Part shown: one piece after another, positions 4,073 through 31,281 of the stretch
Position numbering within the stretch: position 1 is the first letter of the stretch
Layout: the number at the start of each line of letters is the position of its first letter
DNA from: Patescibacteria group bacterium UBA4787
GTDB taxonomy: Bacteria > Patescibacteriota > Patescibacteriia > UBA2591 > UBA4787
Assembly: GCA_002402995.1 (NCBI GenBank)
Contig: DHGX01000001.1
Span: 85,625 to 149,624 of the forward strand
DNA length: 64,000 bases
Direction: 5' to 3'
Position numbers and translations under genes: made by a program
Notes under the pieces: model-generated
What the model was told of the DNA's origin: nothing
The model's database searches: none
What the model saw: the letters and a program-made list of their open reading frames with translations, nothing else

Positions 4073-4686
4073 TCGCCAGCAAATATCTTAAAGCACCTCA
4101 CTTGATTAAAGCGTTTAAAAAAATTAAACGCGAAGATTTCGTTTTACCTGGAGCGAAAGAAGAAGCAGGGCTAAACGTTCCTTTAAATATAGGATTCGGC
4201 CAAACAATTTCTCAACCCTTAACCGTGGCCTTTATGTTAGAACTATTAGAACCAAGAAAAACCGAAAAAGTCTTAGATATTGGTTCGGGATCGGGTTGGG
4301 TGTCGGCTTTATTGACAGAGATAGTCGGCGAAAGTGGCAGAGTCTACGCCATTGAACGAATCGAGGAATTAAAAAGTTTCGGTGAACAAAATACGGAAAA
4401 ATATAGATTTGTTTCCGACGGGCGGTTGAAATTTTTTGTAGGCGATGGCGCAAAAGGACTGCCGGAATACGCGCCTTTTGACGTGATTCACGTGGCTGCT
4501 AGCGCTGCGACAATTCCGTCAGCCTTATTGGATCAACTGGCAATTGGCGGGCGCTTGATCATACCTGAGGGTGTGGACACCCAAGAATTAGTTTTAATTG
4601 AACGTAAAAGCGAAAATGAATATACTCAGCGCCGTTTTAGTGGTTTTGTCTTCGTACCCCTAATCTCCAAAACAATAAATAGATAG
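4048..4686 (+). CDS. pcm: Protein-L-isoaspartate O-methyltransferase
   Basis: GQTISQP motif, LDIGSGSGW SAM-binding motif, and the expected overall length. Confidence 0.85.
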   Translation: MADLVEQLIASKYLKAPHLIKAFKKIKREDFVLPGAKEEAGLNVPLNIGFGQTISQPLTVAFMLELLEPRKTEKVLDIGSGSGWVSALLTEIVGESGRVYAIERIEELKSFGEQNTEKYRFVSDGRLKFFVGDGAKGLPEYAPFDVIHVAASAATIPSALLDQLAIGGRLIIPEGVDTQELVLIERKSENEYTQRRFSGFVFVPLISKTINR

Positions 4687-21571: not shown

Positions 21572-21602
21572 AGAATAAGGAGTTTAACGCTCCTTATTCT
21601 TA
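21572..21602. terminator. Bidirectional hairpin at the 3' end of the minus-strand gene
   Basis: aataaggagtttaacgctccttatt perfect 9-bp stem. Confidence 0.45.
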
Positions 21603-22375
21603 TCAATAATCGATTTATAGTATTTTTCTATATCGAGATCAATTTCATCAATTAAATACGGGCCGCCCACTCCAGCGAGTTTGGGTGCGCGCATCCAATT
21701 ACGAACCCTATCGTCAATACGATATTCACGCAAACCAGAAACCAGATATAAATAGCGTGGATTTTTTTCTCGATAAAGATTTTTATAGGTAGCGGCATAA
21801 AAAGCCATAGGTATATCTTGGTCTCGTTCATCCATTTCTGTACCTATGATATTAAATAGAGAGCCGCCGCCCGCCAAATTCTTTTTAGAAATTTCTTGAT
21901 TAGACGTATGATAACCTAAATATCGTCCGAGTTCTTGCGATATTTCGGCGATGCCCCAAAATATTGCTTCGGCAAATGCCGTTGGATTATTTTTTATTTC
22001 TGGTTTGTTTTCCACGTTTTCTTCAATAACCACTCTGATTACCTTCAAACGATTCTCGATTGGTGTAGCCAGAACAGCATCAACTACATCTCTGTTTTTT
22101 TGTTTTTTGACTAAACTAACAAATTCGTTTACAACTTTTTCTTCTAGGCCGACTTTTTTTAAGTCGTTGATAAAATCTAGCAGGATTTTCGAAAAAGCAA
22201 TTTCTCGAAAAATAATTTCTCTAATTTTTTCGCCCTCTTTCTCACTACCGGGTTCGTGGAATTCGGCCGTCTCCCTGAAAATCGTTTCTTTCTGGTCAAA
22301 GATTTCTGTAATCGGTTTTTCGGATTTTTTACCGACGATTTCTTGTTTGAATGTTGGTTTTTCAAAGGGAGTCAT
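21584..22375 (-). CDS. Hypothetical protein
   Basis: 263-aa ORF with balanced composition; the antisense ORF 21951..22385 is low-complexity. No recognised domain. Confidence 0.45.
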   Translation of the reverse strand: MTPFEKPTFKQEIVGKKSEKPITEIFDQKETIFRETAEFHEPGSEKEGEKIREIIFREIAFSKILLDFINDLKKVGLEEKVVNEFVSLVKKQKNRDVVDAVLATPIENRLKVIRVVIEENVENKPEIKNNPTAFAEAIFWGIAEISQELGRYLGYHTSNQEISKKNLAGGGSLFNIIGTEMDERDQDIPMAFYAATYKNLYREKNPRYLYLVSGLREYRIDDRVRNWMRAPKLAGVGGPYLIDEIDLDIEKYYKSIIDKNKER

Positions 22376-23796: not shown

Positions 23797-23838
23797 AAAT
23801 AAAATCACGCAGCTTTGATCGAGCCGCGTGATTTTTTA
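23797..23838. terminator. Bidirectional terminator hairpin between convergent genes
   Basis: aatcacgcagctttgatcgagccgcgtgatttttta. Confidence 0.5.
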
Positions 23839-23849
23839 TTGAACAAATT

Positions 23850-24797
23850 TTATTTAATGCCGAGCATCTTGTCTATTTCTTTTTTTGATCTAGGCACCTC
23901 GATGCCGCGGCTTCGCAATCCTTCTGTAATTTTCGATTTGGAATTTTTTCCAGAATTTTCGGATATCTGTCGTATATCTGAAATATTTAATTGCGAAGAT
24001 AGTTTTCTGATTAAACGGTCTATTTTATTGCTGTCATCGGTTAAGTCTGCCAAATAATCATACAGAAAATCTTCAACAAAGATTTTAGCCAAAAGTTCGT
24101 CGTTATATTCTTTATCAAAGATTATTCTTCTTATAGTTTCATCGGCTGAGGAATAAATTTGGGGATATTGATTAAAAGAGTGAGAAAGGTTGATGTTGCC
24201 CGCTTTAAGGTCTTTATAAAGATGAGTATGAAGAGAGCCTAAAGAAATTAAGATTTTTAATTCTTTCCTGTTCTTATAATTCGGATTGTTGTCTAAAAAT
24301 TTTTTAATCTCATTTTTTATATTCTCTTTTATTTTTTCCTCTCTGGTAATGTTGGCCTCGGCTTCACCACGAACATATAAACGAATTTTTTCTATAGCCT
24401 CATCAAATTTTCCTTCTGCGAAGAAGCCCAAAGATTTTTCGAATATTTTCCGAGAGCTTCTGAACAATTTTCTTATTTCGGTGGCCTCTTTAGAAATATC
24501 AACAATAATAATGGGTTTTTTTGAATTATAGATTAAGCCATCTAAATAATTTAGAGCGGGATTTTGACAGGCGCTGGGTTTAATTGTGCCTTGGCTTAGA
24601 TCTTCTAAATATTTTTTTTCTTGTTCTCCCCACACATAATTTTCGGGTGCGTAAATGTCTGTTTCTTCAAAGAGCGATTTGATTTCTTTCACGTCTTCTC
24701 TGGTGCCATGTGGACTATAAAAAAAATGATAAGAAATTTTCGGTTCTTTTTCTTGTTGTTCGTCGCCGAGCTCTATCTTGTCGAACGATTTTTCCAT
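23850..24797 (-). CDS. Hypothetical protein, tandem paralog family member C
   Basis: Shares I.F..G.H.S...V, DIY.PE, IISLG..H...Y..LK and FEP segments with 24911..25741 and 25756..27003. The start was moved to MEKSFDK to avoid overlap with tRNA-Pro. Confidence 0.5.
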   Translation of the reverse strand: MEKSFDKIELGDEQQEKEPKISYHFFYSPHGTREDVKEIKSLFEETDIYAPENYVWGEQEKKYLEDLSQGTIKPSACQNPALNYLDGLIYNSKKPIIIVDISKEATEIRKLFRSSRKIFEKSLGFFAEGKFDEAIEKIRLYVRGEAEANITREEKIKENIKNEIKKFLDNNPNYKNRKELKILISLGSLHTHLYKDLKAGNINLSHSFNQYPQIYSSADETIRRIIFDKEYNDELLAKIFVEDFLYDYLADLTDDSNKIDRLIRKLSSQLNISDIRQISENSGKNSKSKITEGLRSRGIEVPRSKKEIDKMLGIK

Positions 24798-24825
24798 AGA
24801 GATATGGTTAGAACTAAGATATTTT

Positions 24826-24902
24826 TGGTCGGGGTGCGCGGATTCGAACCGCGGACCTTCTGCTCCCAAAGCAGACGCGCTAGCCAGCTGCGCTACACCC
24901 CG
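24826..24902 (-). tRNA. tRNA-Pro (anticodon TGG), CCA encoded
   Basis: The reverse complement CGGGGTGTAGCGCAGCTGGCTAGCGCGTCTGCTTTGGGAGCAGAAGGTCCGCGGTTCGAATCCGCGCACCCCGACCA gives a canonical cloverleaf. Confidence 0.9.
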
Positions 24903-24910
24903 TCTTGAAT

Positions 24911-25900
24911 TTATCTATTATAATCTTGTTTTTCTAATTTTTCAACCAATCTTTTAATACTGTCTTCGTTAGCTTCGTCAACTTCGTCATCAAAAATAAG
25001 TCCTTTTGATTCCAGAAATTTTCCAACTACGAAGATATTATTTGCTCTGATTTGATCTGACATTTTCTTCTCGCCTCTTAAATTTTCTTTTAATTCCACG
25101 GATAGTTTTTTTATCTCATCAAGAGAAATTCTTTTAGAGGCTTGTATAATCAGGCGGCTTATTAACCTTTCGTCTTTTGTTTCTTTGTCGATATGAGTTC
25201 TTATAAATCTTTCTATAAGAGCCTTGGCTAAAATATCTTGGTTAAATTTTTCCGGGCTTATTAATTCTTTTTCTCGTAAGGCAGTGCGATAAGGCTCAAA
25301 AATTATCGGTTTTTCTTGGGGATATTCTCGTTCTACGTTCTGTCCGAATTTTTTAAGATTTATATATGGCAGAGAATGAGATTCGCCCAGAGAAATGAGA
25401 ATATTGATTGCTTCTTTATTTTTTAGGCTGGGCCTATTATTAATAAATCTGGGAAGATATTTTTTCAGAGAATTAATAATATGATGGTCGCGCTTATTCT
25501 GAATATACGCGAAAAGATTCATTTCTTCGTTGATTAATTCTATCGCTTTAGCGAAATTGCCTTTAATGAAATTGTCGAAAACTTTTTGATTATAATTTTG
25601 AAATTTTTCTTCCATTTTTTCTATCTCTTTGTCGCCGCTTGATATATCAGCTAAAAATATTTCTTTGTTTGAGCCAAAAATAAGCTTTACCTCTTCTTTT
25701 TCAAAGTCTTCATAAATAGAGTCGCACCCCCATGTTTCCATAAATTTTTCAGGCGTTAATTCTCCGGCGGAAAGTTTTTTGAGGTCGTTTTTAAAATCCT
25801 CGCTATAGAAAGCAAATTCCGGAATATAAACATCGCAACCTCCAAAGTTTTTTGTAGTGGCGCCACGTTTTCTTTCGAGGTGTGAGGACCTAAGACAAAT
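24911..25900 (-). pseudogene. Paralog family member B, disrupted by a frameshift near 25850 (5' part in another frame, fused to the end of the upstream ORF)
   Basis: The minus-strand reading MKIKFVLGPHTSKENVAPLQKTLEV continues after a 1-nt shift as CDVYIPEFAFYSEDFKNDL...METWGCDSIY. Together these are collinear with the N-terminus of paralog A (MKIEFAFGWHASAKDVKFIQQKFESCDIYIPEMAFYSPEV). Confidence 0.45.
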
Positions 25901-27003
25901 TTAATTTTCATTTTTTCTCTAATCTTCTCTAATTCGTGAGTATCTTCAAGTTCTAAAACTTCAACTAATTCGCGAACCGTTTCGTCGTTAAGTTCGACTC
26001 CTTCTTCGAAAAGCACGCCCTTTGTTTCCAGTAAATCAAAGATTATTTTTATATTTTCTTTCCTGGCTTTTTCGTCTTTTTTATCCTCATAACGAGCCAT
26101 ATTTTCTTTTAATTTTCGGCTCAGGTTCTCAATTTCTTTAATATTTATTCTTTTGTTTATTTCAGAAAGTAGTTTATCTTTAACGCTTTGGTCCTTGATA
26201 AAACCGAACAGGGTGGATAAAAATTCAGTCATTAACGCCCGAGGCAGAAGATCTTTTGATATTTCTTTTTCTGGCATAAATTCTCTTTGCCGTAGCCCTT
26301 GTATTTGCGGTTCAAAGATAAACGGTTTTACCGGAAAGGATCGGCCAACATCATGACTATTTTTTAGTTGAATATAGGCCGGCGTATGGACTGCCCCCAA
26401 AGAAACCAAAACATTGATTTTTGGTTTTTTCTGCAATTTTTTATTTTTGCCAATAATTGCCGGCAAGTCATTTTTTATTTTTTCAGCGATATGTTCGTCT
26501 CGTTTCTTTTCTAAGTCGCTATAAAGATTAATTTCTTGGCTAATTGATTTTATGCCTTCTTCTAAGTCGCCCTCAAGAAATTTATCAAAATTTACCTCTC
26601 GTATTTTTCGGATATTTAGGTATTGATCTAACTCATGTCCATCGTCCGAAACATCAGCTAAGAATATTTCTTTATGCGAGTTGTAGATCATTTTAAGAAT
26701 AGCAAATAAGAAATCAGGAAAATTGCCTCCATGTTTTTCATAAAATTGGCTTGGTGAAAGTTTACCCGCAGAGATATTTTTTAAGTCTTTTTTAACTTCT
26801 GGGCTATAGAAGGCCATTTCCGGAATATAAATATCGCAACTCTCAAATTTTTGTTGAATAAATTTAACGTCTTTGGCAGAGGCATGCCATCCAAATGCAA
26901 ATTCAATTTTCATTTTTTCCCTGATTTCTCGTAAATCTTTTTCCGATAATTCTTTTTTTTTGTTTTGCGGGCGTATTTTCTTTTCTGACGGGGTAGAATT
27001 CAC
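25756..27003 (-). CDS. Hypothetical protein, tandem paralog family member A. The ORF runs without a stop into the start of member B.
   Basis: 415-aa ORF. Its C-terminal 40 aa restart the family N-terminal motif (L.EIREKMKI.F..G.H). Confidence 0.45.
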   Translation of the reverse strand: MNSTPSEKKIRPQNKKKELSEKDLREIREKMKIEFAFGWHASAKDVKFIQQKFESCDIYIPEMAFYSPEVKKDLKNISAGKLSPSQFYEKHGGNFPDFLFAILKMIYNSHKEIFLADVSDDGHELDQYLNIRKIREVNFDKFLEGDLEEGIKSISQEINLYSDLEKKRDEHIAEKIKNDLPAIIGKNKKLQKKPKINVLVSLGAVHTPAYIQLKNSHDVGRSFPVKPFIFEPQIQGLRQREFMPEKEISKDLLPRALMTEFLSTLFGFIKDQSVKDKLLSEINKRINIKEIENLSRKLKENMARYEDKKDEKARKENIKIIFDLLETKGVLFEEGVELNDETVRELVEVLELEDTHELEKIREKMKIKFVLGPHTSKENVAPLQKTLEVAMFIFRNLLSIARILKTTSKNFPPEN

Positions 27004-27063
27004 GATCAGCCATATTAAAGTTGGTCATAATTATGGATTTGTTTCGTTAAATTTATTTCGCAA

Positions 27064-30717: not shown

Positions 30718-31281
30718 ATGAGCGTTTATACTCCAAAAATTCAAGAAGCATTGGAATTTGCCGCCAAAGTCCATCAGAATCAAAAAAGAAAGATCGGCGG
30801 TTTGCCATATTTAATACATTCTGTGGGTGTAGCCTTGATTTTGACAGGAATAAACACAGAAGAAGATTTGATCGCCGCCGCCTTACTCCATGACACCATA
30901 GAAGACGGCGAAGGAATTAACAAAGAAGTTTTAGCTAAAAAATTTGGTGATAGAGTAGCCGAAATTGTTTATGGGGTTAGTGAAAAAAGTAAATCATTGT
31001 CATGGCAAGAAAGAAAAGTTGAGGCACTTGATCATGTTGTCAGGGCGGGTTATGACGAGATTTTGGTTAAATCGGCCGACGTGGTTTATAATATGAATGA
31101 TGTCGCCACCAGTTATCAGAATGAGGGCGAGGCGATATTTGAGCACTTTAAGGCTGGCAAAGAACAGCAACTAGAGCGTTATCAAAAATTAGTTAAAACT
31201 ATAAAAAACAAATGGCCGCAGAACCCATTAATGCAGGAGTTAGAGGAAAAGCTGAGCAAGCTGGAGAATCTTTGGCAATAA
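30718..31281 (+). CDS. HD-domain phosphohydrolase, RelA/SpoT-type (p)ppGpp hydrolase-like
   Basis: HD motif (LIHSVGVA...AALLHDTIEDG) typical of the SpoT/RelA N-terminal hydrolase domain; 187 aa with no synthetase domain. Confidence 0.65.
   Translation: MSVYTPKIQEALEFAAKVHQNQKRKIGGLPYLIHSVGVALILTGINTEEDLIAAALLHDTIEDGEGINKEVLAKKFGDRVAEIVYGVSEKSKSLSWQERKVEALDHVVRAGYDEILVKSADVVYNMNDVATSYQNEGEAIFEHFKAGKEQQLERYQKLVKTIKNKWPQNPLMQELEEKLSKLENLWQ

Follow-up and report, generated by a model that had tools for sequence, protein, structure and literature searches.

A two-domain gene broken at poly-A runs and its single-domain paralog in a Patescibacteria genome are candidate TIKI-like hydrolases

We analyzed a 64,000-nucleotide stretch of the Patescibacteria group bacterium UBA4787 genome (GenBank assembly GCA_002402995.1, contig DHGX01000001.1, positions 85,625 to 149,624; hereafter the window), where three related coding units, referred to as copies A, B and C, lie one after another on the minus strand with a proline tRNA gene among them. 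The original prediction, made from the sequence alone, had taken these units for a lineage-specific, rapidly evolving tandem family at a tRNA-associated variable spot, and perhaps for one large multi-repeat protein interrupted by a frameshift. The reading that we consider likely is that A and B form a single two-domain gene, A-B, broken at poly-A runs, and that this gene and copy C encode TIKI-like cytoplasmic hydrolases. Under this reading, the Candidate Phyla Radiation (CPR) has a divergent and so far undescribed branch of a known enzyme superfamily, and the locus also poses an annotation problem; the find is of modest interest.

Copies A, B and C are homologous, with similarity far beyond chance. 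Pairwise BLASTP aligns A with B at 39.9% identity over 341 amino acids (E 9e-76), A with C at 29.8% (E 4e-32) and B with C at 28.0% (E 2e-29). The shared motifs listed in the original prediction occupy common alignment columns in all three copies, so that its proposal of three collinear minus-strand homologs holds and the doubt it had raised, that the motifs might prove non-homologous, is settled by the alignment. A search of the 64-kb window with a hidden Markov model (HMM) of the family revealed no copies beyond these three.

As presently listed, the A-B gene is divided among three minus-strand open reading frames (ORFs): a 41-amino-acid ORF at 26903..27028, a 415-amino-acid ORF at 25756..27003 with a listed GTG start at 27003, which contains domain A and the N-terminus of B, and a 276-amino-acid ORF at 24911..25741, which contains the rest of domain B. 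Inspection of the three-frame translation of 25600..26000 reveals that the 415-amino-acid ORF runs without a stop from the end of A (...VEVLELEDTH) into the N-terminus of B (ELEKIREKMKIKFVLGPH...), as had been claimed, where the start of B reads ELEKIREKMKIKFVLGPHTSKENVAPLQK... in the same translation. The continuation of B (..NFGGCDVYIPEFAFYSEDF...) sits in a different frame from the 415-amino-acid ORF. Addition of one A to the run of six A at 25848..25853 (minus strand) restores the frame and joins B as ...PLQKNFGGCDVYIPE..., which bears out the 1-nt shift predicted near 25850. This site is only one of two. The true start of A-B is the ATG at 27028, with the peptide MTNFNMADREFYP..., in a frame that differs from that of the listed GTG at 27003, and this frame is lost within a run of nine A at 26953..26961 (minus strand), a break that the original prediction, with its single frameshift, had missed. 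Removal of one A at 26953..26961 and addition of one A at 25848..25853 yield a single uninterrupted ORF of 705 amino acids that begins at 27028 and ends with the stop at 24911.

In the repaired A-B gene (24911..27028, minus strand), domain A extends over 25936..27028 and consists of the N-terminal peptide, a TIKI-like alpha/beta core in the structural model discussed below and a C-terminal helical bundle. Domain B extends over 24911..25935 and is a paralog of A at 40% identity that keeps all conserved residues (GPH, DVYIPE, KRD, SLGESH). The second break, within domain B, separates the His motif from the Asp/Glu motif.

Relatives with both domains in one ORF provide the comparison on which the fusion rests. 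Protein P0152 (711 amino acids; loci L018, L019 and L025) covers both domains in a single ORF and is 81% identical to A, P0002 (687 amino acids; L002) likewise covers both domains in a single ORF, and P0003 is a more distant two-domain protein of 705 amino acids. P0002 and P0003 came from an exhaustive profile search with the A/B/C alignment, and P0152 from a later word-indexed search. All three begin with MTNFN[IM].D.EFYP, which is the peptide of the window's 41-amino-acid ORF. The window locus is about 91-93% identical in DNA to the orthologous loci L002 and L018, and DNA alignments with both contain only two frame-changing differences, one in each homopolymer. A regular-expression check of the two runs found eight A at the first site and seven at the second in five of five orthologous assemblies (L002, L018, L019, L025 and L026), compared with nine and six in the window. 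Given the intact orthologs of 687-711 amino acids and the A8 and A7 runs in all five assemblies, the A-B fusion is the normal state of the gene, and the two single-base homopolymer differences are the abnormal part. The idea of a large multi-repeat protein broken by a frameshift is thus upheld for A-B and fails for C, which is a gene apart.

Alignment of the window with L002 and L018 also revealed a 77-nt stretch at the A/B junction, at approximately 25871-25947 on the minus strand, that is identical in all three sequences, where 18.7% of alignment columns vary overall. This is the longest invariant stretch in the gene, and it takes in the linker between the domains as well as the first part of domain B.

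The architecture of P0003 bears on the order of duplication and fusion in the family. Its first domain is approximately 40% identical to A and to B alike, and its second domain is of the C type (39%). The combination of an A/B-type domain with a C-type domain argues that the A/B duplication is younger than the split of the A/B type from the C type, and that the fusion of family units into one polypeptide would have occurred more than once. P0003 has no tRNA between its two domains; it lies on a short Logan contig (L003 31-2148), for which a chimera is possible.

Copy C is a separate single-domain paralog at 23850..24797 (minus strand, 315 amino acids) and belongs to the commoner type within the family. 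Its ORF is listed as 23850..24869, and the extension 5' of the real start, the ATG at 24797, overlaps the tRNA-Pro gene. Orthologs of C comprise a 319-amino-acid protein in L018 and P0004 (L004), which is 65% identical. The tRNA-Pro gene (anticodon TGG; 24826..24902, minus strand), identified by ARAGORN and by the Rfam tRNA model at 68.5 bits, lies between copies B and C, immediately upstream of C as originally noted. A promoter-like site, TTGAAA-17-TATAAT, with 11 of 12 matches is found at 24917..24945 (minus strand), within the 3' end of B and just upstream of the tRNA, and a terminator-like hairpin of 14 pairs followed by a T run is found at 23801..23835 (minus strand), 3' of copy C. Together these suggest that tRNA-Pro and C may share a transcript, where the promoter-like site is a consensus match only, the count of such sites in the region being not above shuffled expectation.

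All three copies are under purifying selection that is somewhat weaker than that on their neighbours. The ratio of nonsynonymous to synonymous substitution rates (dN/dS) against the L018 ortholog is 0.27 for A-B (0.34 for A and 0.20 for B) and 0.16 for C, and it is these values of 0.16-0.34 that indicate purifying selection. The same ratio is 0.24 between two intact orthologs and 0.07-0.23 for neighbouring genes. A-B displays no excess amino-acid change, and the label of a rapidly evolving family is not borne out by these ratios. The synonymous rate itself (dS) of A-B against L018 (0.26-0.31) amounts to roughly half the value seen for most neighbours (0.49-0.75), while dN/dS is higher (0.20-0.34 versus 0.07-0.23). 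The low dS possibly reflects codon or AT constraints, or recombination between strains.

Copies A, B and C belong to a large protein family. The exhaustive profile search, with the A/B/C alignment as the query profile and clusters counted at 50% identity, returned 1,119 cluster representatives at E <= 1e-3, 748 at E <= 1e-10 and 240 at E <= 1e-30. The family surfaced only by this route; a word-indexed protein search with copy A returned only the self-match. Nearly all matches are single-domain proteins of 300-380 amino acids, and Pfam detects no fused domain in the longer members (P0117, P0071, P0050 and others). A scan of the GTDB species genomes located members in metagenome-assembled genomes (MAGs) of Curtissbacteria, Levybacteria, Kerfeldbacteria, Paceibacterota and Saccharibacteria and in other 'Patescibacteria group' MAGs. 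With 1,119 clusters spread over several Patescibacteria lineages, the family is not lineage-specific as had been supposed. Two family-carrying MAGs (L006 and L008) are labelled 'uncultured Gammaproteobacteria', where nearly all other matches are Patescibacteria or unclassified MAGs; the two MAGs may be mislabelled, or the family may extend outside the CPR. In a crude check, an uncharged hydrophobic stretch near the N-terminus was found in 1 of 150 representatives. Because almost all members are free of an N-terminal hydrophobic segment, the family proteins are predicted to be mainly cytoplasmic. One of the longer members, P0071, carries a Tat-like signal.

To describe conservation within the family, residues are numbered from the GTG at 27003. 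Asp57, Glu62, Arg168 and Gly203 are invariant in an alignment of 69 sequences, and His40, Asp45, Pro61, Gly80, Ser109, Lys111, Asp117, His206, Thr207 and Arg238 are conserved in at least 90% of them. A, B and C all keep the conserved residue set. The family also has a conserved C-terminal helical bundle of approximately 120 amino acids that ends in the motif G-I-x-V-P-K-S-E-x-E-x-D-x-x-L-G.

Prediction of the fold of one unit, a check that had been suggested together with the original prediction, gave a confident alpha/beta model that is TIKI-like. The AlphaFold model of domain A, built with the 69-sequence alignment, has a predicted local distance difference test score (pLDDT) of 93.5 and a predicted template modelling score (pTM) of 0.89, and a weaker independent model led to the same top structural matches. 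In the modelled unit of approximately 320 amino acids, the alpha/beta core is accompanied by a long helical hairpin (residues 123-186) and by the C-terminal helical bundle. The core contains a parallel beta sheet, as in solved members of the TIKI superfamily. The model places His40, Asp57, Glu62, Arg168 and Gly203-x-x-His206 at, or immediately past, the ends of beta strands on their C-terminal side.

The superfamily in question unites the TIKI, TraB-PrgY-GumN, erythromycin esterase and ChaN proteins (Sanchez-Pulido and Ponting 2013, as summarised in PMC6254334), with solved structures for ChaN (2G5G), Bcr135/136, EreC, HopBA1, the C2 domain of PMT and RRSP. PMT, HopBA1, Bcr135 and ChaN are all assigned to it, and its catalytic residues, two His and two Glu together with a conserved Arg, follow one another as E-x-H, E, R, H (PMC6254334). 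The H, E, R, H order is present in our family, with spacings (H-22-E and R-38-H) comparable to those of RRSP (H-28-E and R-29-H). A TIKI-like fold with a plausible His/Glu hydrolase site is thus well supported, and membership in the TIKI superfamily by descent is probable. The proteins are most likely cytoplasmic hydrolases, in which water activated by the His-Glu pair would cleave a peptide or ester bond. The helical domain would contribute to the choice of substrate, and the paralogs would differ in the substrate that they act upon.

Several results weigh against the reading of A-B and C as TIKI-like hydrolases with A-B broken at poly-A runs. The first Glu of the 2His/2Glu set (E-x-H) is absent, where the family consensus is F-x-S-x-H-x-T, with Ser or Gly two positions before His40. 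Foldseek found no match in the PDB, the best having E 0.06 and a TM score of about 0.2. Alignment of the family by hhalign to E. coli YbaP, either alone or as a 12-sequence profile, is not significant (probability <1%, E 0.07-0.4); the YbaP/TraB profile is shallow, since the search for YbaP homologs gave only close relatives of at least 59% identity. The only local hhalign match, within this non-significant alignment, pairs His40 and Glu62 with the GSIH and IVE motifs of TraB. Scans of A, B and C against Pfam, NCBIfam, PADLOC and PHROGs gave no meaningful match, and sequence and profile searches against PDB chains returned only coiled-coil noise and no TIKI member. Among the 69 aligned members, none reaches the gathering threshold of Pfam PF01963, PF05139 or PF04187, and the Pfam scan of these sequences returned only scattered noise, with no match to a TIKI-type family at E <= 1. 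The neighbourhoods of other members differ from one another and offer no functional lead. Finally, single-base differences that create stop codons in the low-coverage loci L002 and L026 make assembly error plausible.

This last point bears on whether the two breaks exist in the cell. We slightly favour the view that they are very recent slippage mutations or polymorphisms. The alternative that survives best, possible and taken seriously though held with less confidence, is that both breaks are homopolymer errors of sequencing or assembly and that the cell has an intact 705-amino-acid gene, as in the orthologs. Both differences are single-base changes in poly-A runs, the classic site of such errors, and the window has just one other 9-base A/T run besides the A9 run at 26953..26961. 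The gene is also otherwise clean, with no stop and no other lesion, the remaining indels relative to orthologs being all multiples of three, and dN/dS in the window lineage resembles that between intact orthologs. Against this alternative stand the rest of the 64 kb. We scanned all 322 homopolymer runs in the window for long ORFs in different frames that meet at a run, and no other homopolymer frame break emerged among them, the only other flagged sites being two ordinary gene junctions. Ten syntenic neighbours align over their full length with L018 at 78-92% identity. Only 18 of the window's 300 A/T runs of at least 6 bases lie in the A-B gene, which makes the coincidence of two random errors in this one 2.1-kb gene unlikely (approximately 3-6% if two events are assumed); further damage to a gene that is already dead, by contrast, is to be expected. 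The A6 run is, in addition, short for such an error on most platforms. A pattern scan for the A6 site in a collection of metagenome contigs, one that does not contain the window's own contig, gave no match.

The stop-creating differences in L002 and L026 deserve a description of their own. These two loci come from the same Hainich population and differ at 7 positions in 2.1 kb, several of them GAA/TAA differences (G-to-T) that truncate either copy: the L002 protein ends at 687 amino acids, and L026 has its stop at codon 527. They are probably low-coverage errors, and the length of 687 amino acids given for P0002 is therefore not trustworthy.

Should the breaks exist in the cell, production of domain A could continue from the GTG at 27003 or through polymerase slippage on the A9 run, while domain B would have its His motif severed from its Asp/Glu motif, and hence would be dead.

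A second alternative concerns the fold. The match could be generic, so that the family would represent some other three-layer alpha/beta protein, such as a ChaN-like binder or a relative with the tetrapyrrole-methylase fold, without hydrolytic activity. The failure of Foldseek and of all sequence and profile methods to tie the family to TIKI families speaks for this view, as does the existence of non-enzymatic proteins with the TIKI fold, since ChaN binds haem and the C1 and C2 domains of PMT are devoid of catalytic residues (PMC6254334). We nonetheless regard it as doubtful: the most conserved residues of the family are precisely the His, Glu, Arg and G-x-x-His in TIKI order, and neither an S-adenosylmethionine (SAM)-binding signature nor a match to the TP_methylase Pfam model of tetrapyrrole (class III) methyltransferases was found.

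Programmed recoding at the breaks is unlikely, because the second site has no slippery heptamer (X XXY YYZ) in phase, the zero frame there being CTA CAA AAA ACT, and because the relatives carry the unshifted run lengths. The shifted state, which conservation would be expected to preserve in a programmed -1 frameshift, is not conserved, as all orthologs have A7 and A8.

A broader form of this idea, in which the breaks serve expression control through a phase-variable poly-A switch or through rescue by polymerase or ribosome slippage, and so vary the production of a one- or two-domain protein, is very unlikely. It would draw on the fact that the +1 and -1 changes together return domain B to the frame of the start codon, on the invariance of the 77-nt junction stretch in three orthologs and on the A9 run, which is of a length sufficient for transcriptional slippage in other bacteria. 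Transcriptional slippage at runs of A9 length is familiar from the poly-A rescue of endosymbiont genes and from dnaX of Thermus. Opposed to it are the in-frame A8 and A7 runs of five of five orthologous assemblies, which give no sign of frequent switching, the A6 run of the second site (CAA AAA ACT), which is short for polymerase slippage and has no slippery heptamer in phase, and the fact that, with both shifts present, the frame initiated at the ATG ends after 41 amino acids. RNA structure at the invariant A/B junction is likewise unremarkable (z = +0.40). A more speculative extension, in which the poly-A tracts would act as a DNA- or RNA-level slippage switch between no, one-domain and two-domain TIKI-like product and the junction, which is invariant even at synonymous sites, would be a nucleotide-level element, for instance an internal initiation region for B alone, is a long shot.

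The remaining alternative arises from the surroundings of the locus. Gene order in the window runs NusA, trigger factor, metallophosphoesterase, RRM protein, tRNA-Gly, DUF5667 protein, C, tRNA-Pro, B-A, SpoIID, Germane-domain protein, HD protein and lysyl-tRNA synthetase (LysRS), and the region is ordinary chromosome. L018 and L025 share the order SpoIID, A-B, tRNA-Pro, C, DUF5667 with the window. Among the flanking genes that were scanned, none has an integrase domain, and the window has no mobile-element gene; the 3' end of tRNA-Pro occurs once in the window with up to 3 mismatches allowed; and there is no step in GC content or composition around the locus. Elsewhere, most family members do not adjoin a tRNA and lie among housekeeping genes, as in the case of one member in a region of ribosomal-protein, thymidylate-kinase and cysteinyl-tRNA synthetase (CysRS) genes.

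Assemblies from the Hainich sister population break at tRNA-Pro, where L002 ends just before the tRNA and L004 starts inside the C ortholog. In L026 (4201-4522; a Hainich H41 R3 contig of coverage 4), only the part of the host tRNA-Pro up to anticodon base 35 is present and is followed by DNA of 52% GC that carries a second, different tRNA-Pro(TGG) at 4259-4331, the rest of the contig having 35% GC. This foreign-looking DNA may be a chimera or a real insertion into the tRNA. A fourth paralog, 41% identical to C, is found in L005 (2812-4055) of the sister MAG H41-bin211_1, approximately 200 nt downstream of a tRNA-Asn(GTT) and in the same orientation, after genes for primase, sigma-70 and a 119-amino-acid protein; it is the second case of a member right after a tRNA. 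In L002 (1841-2098), an 85-amino-acid gene with a GIY-YIG nuclease domain lies between SpoIID and A-B; it is absent from the window, which has a 35-nt spacer at this place, and from L018. An HD_4-domain gene (window positions 30718-31281) with an adjacent 80-amino-acid ORF, between the Germane-domain gene and LysRS, is absent from the otherwise syntenic L018.

The reading of the original prediction, in which the copies would point to a tRNA-linked genomic island or a hypervariable site whose cargo changes rapidly, is highly improbable in this lineage, for the position of tRNA-Pro between B and C, the fourth paralog after tRNA-Asn in the sister MAG, the extra GIY-YIG gene upstream in L002 and, as the one caveat in favour of the claim, the Hainich assemblies that break at this same tRNA-Pro, with L026 running from the anticodon into DNA of 52% GC with a second tRNA-Pro, are set against a conserved gene order around the tRNA in L018 and L025, a window free of integrase or mobile-element genes, of a tRNA 3'-end repeat and of a compositional step, dN/dS values well below 1, and the majority of family members elsewhere, which lie away from tRNAs among housekeeping genes.

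Two further features of the surroundings can be recorded. In the window, a 263-amino-acid ORF at 21584..22375 (minus strand), located between tRNA-Gly and the DUF5667 gene and without a Pfam match, was considered as a fourth copy and rejected, as it does not match the family HMM. Elsewhere, the member P0033 (L023 / L024 973-9206) lies within a series of genes on one strand that comprises five or six SAM-methyltransferase genes, a PPDK_N-domain gene and an alpha/beta hydrolase gene and that may constitute a modification gene cluster.

The reading of A-B as one broken two-domain gene has direct consequences for annotation: the 41-, 415- and 276-amino-acid ORFs should be merged into one 705-amino-acid gene or flagged as frameshifted, with the start moved to 27028. 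CPR/Patescibacteria genomes are small and rich in proteins without an assigned function, and this family, with more than 1,000 clusters and often several copies per genome, is one for which there is as yet no Pfam, NCBIfam, PHROGs or PADLOC model. The link to TIKI, erythromycin-esterase and ChaN proteins, together with the His-Glu-Arg-His set, provides a testable hypothesis, namely an activity that depends on His40, Glu62 and His206. The locus changes nothing in the understanding of tRNA-linked variation or of recoding.

Comparison with known systems places both the breaks and the proteins in context. In the genomes of endosymbionts, genes broken at poly-A tracts are partly rescued by polymerase slippage. 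The A-B gene resembles these in that an A9 run close to its 5' end has changed by one base, the gene being otherwise undamaged; it differs in that its second break lies in only six A and in that its orthologs carry in-frame lengths.

For the proteins, a comparison within the same bacterial group is offered by the Tiki/TraB-family peptidases of CPR graspetide loci, which encode ATP-grasp-dependent ribosomally synthesized and post-translationally modified peptides (RiPPs) and in which the peptidases are proposed to be peptide-processing enzymes (PMC8939145). Neither the surroundings of the window genes nor those of the other members examined contain an ATP-grasp, radical-SAM or precursor gene, a difference in gene context from these loci; the superfamily would be the same. 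E. coli YbaP and the TraB/GumN proteins (PF01963) differ from the family in that the hhalign match is not significant (probability <1%) and no family member reaches the Pfam threshold. They have a core domain of similar size and resemble the family in two local patterns, a hydrophobic strand followed by G-x-x-H (VGALH, compared with LGAVH) and aD-hhh-E (ADALIVE, compared with CDIYIPE), which are the motifs paired in the only local hhalign match.

Relative to the TIKI superfamily as a whole, the family has no detectable sequence or profile similarity and no Foldseek match. Its first motif is S/G-x-H, where the superfamily has G-x-x-H or E-x-H, so that the first Glu is missing; a long helical hairpin (residues 123-186) is placed between Glu and Arg, and the conserved C-terminal helical bundle of approximately 120 amino acids is added to the core. 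Most members, moreover, are predicted to be cytoplasmic and are found here only in Patescibacteria MAGs and the two MAGs labelled Gammaproteobacteria. The likeness to the superfamily lies in the model of the alpha/beta core, a parallel sheet flanked by helices, and in the placement of the conserved residues upon it. That is to say, the family His follows strand 1, the Glu follows strand 2, the Arg lies in the helix that precedes the last conserved strand and G-x-x-H follows that strand, in the same order as the H, E, R and H of RRSP and Bcr135.

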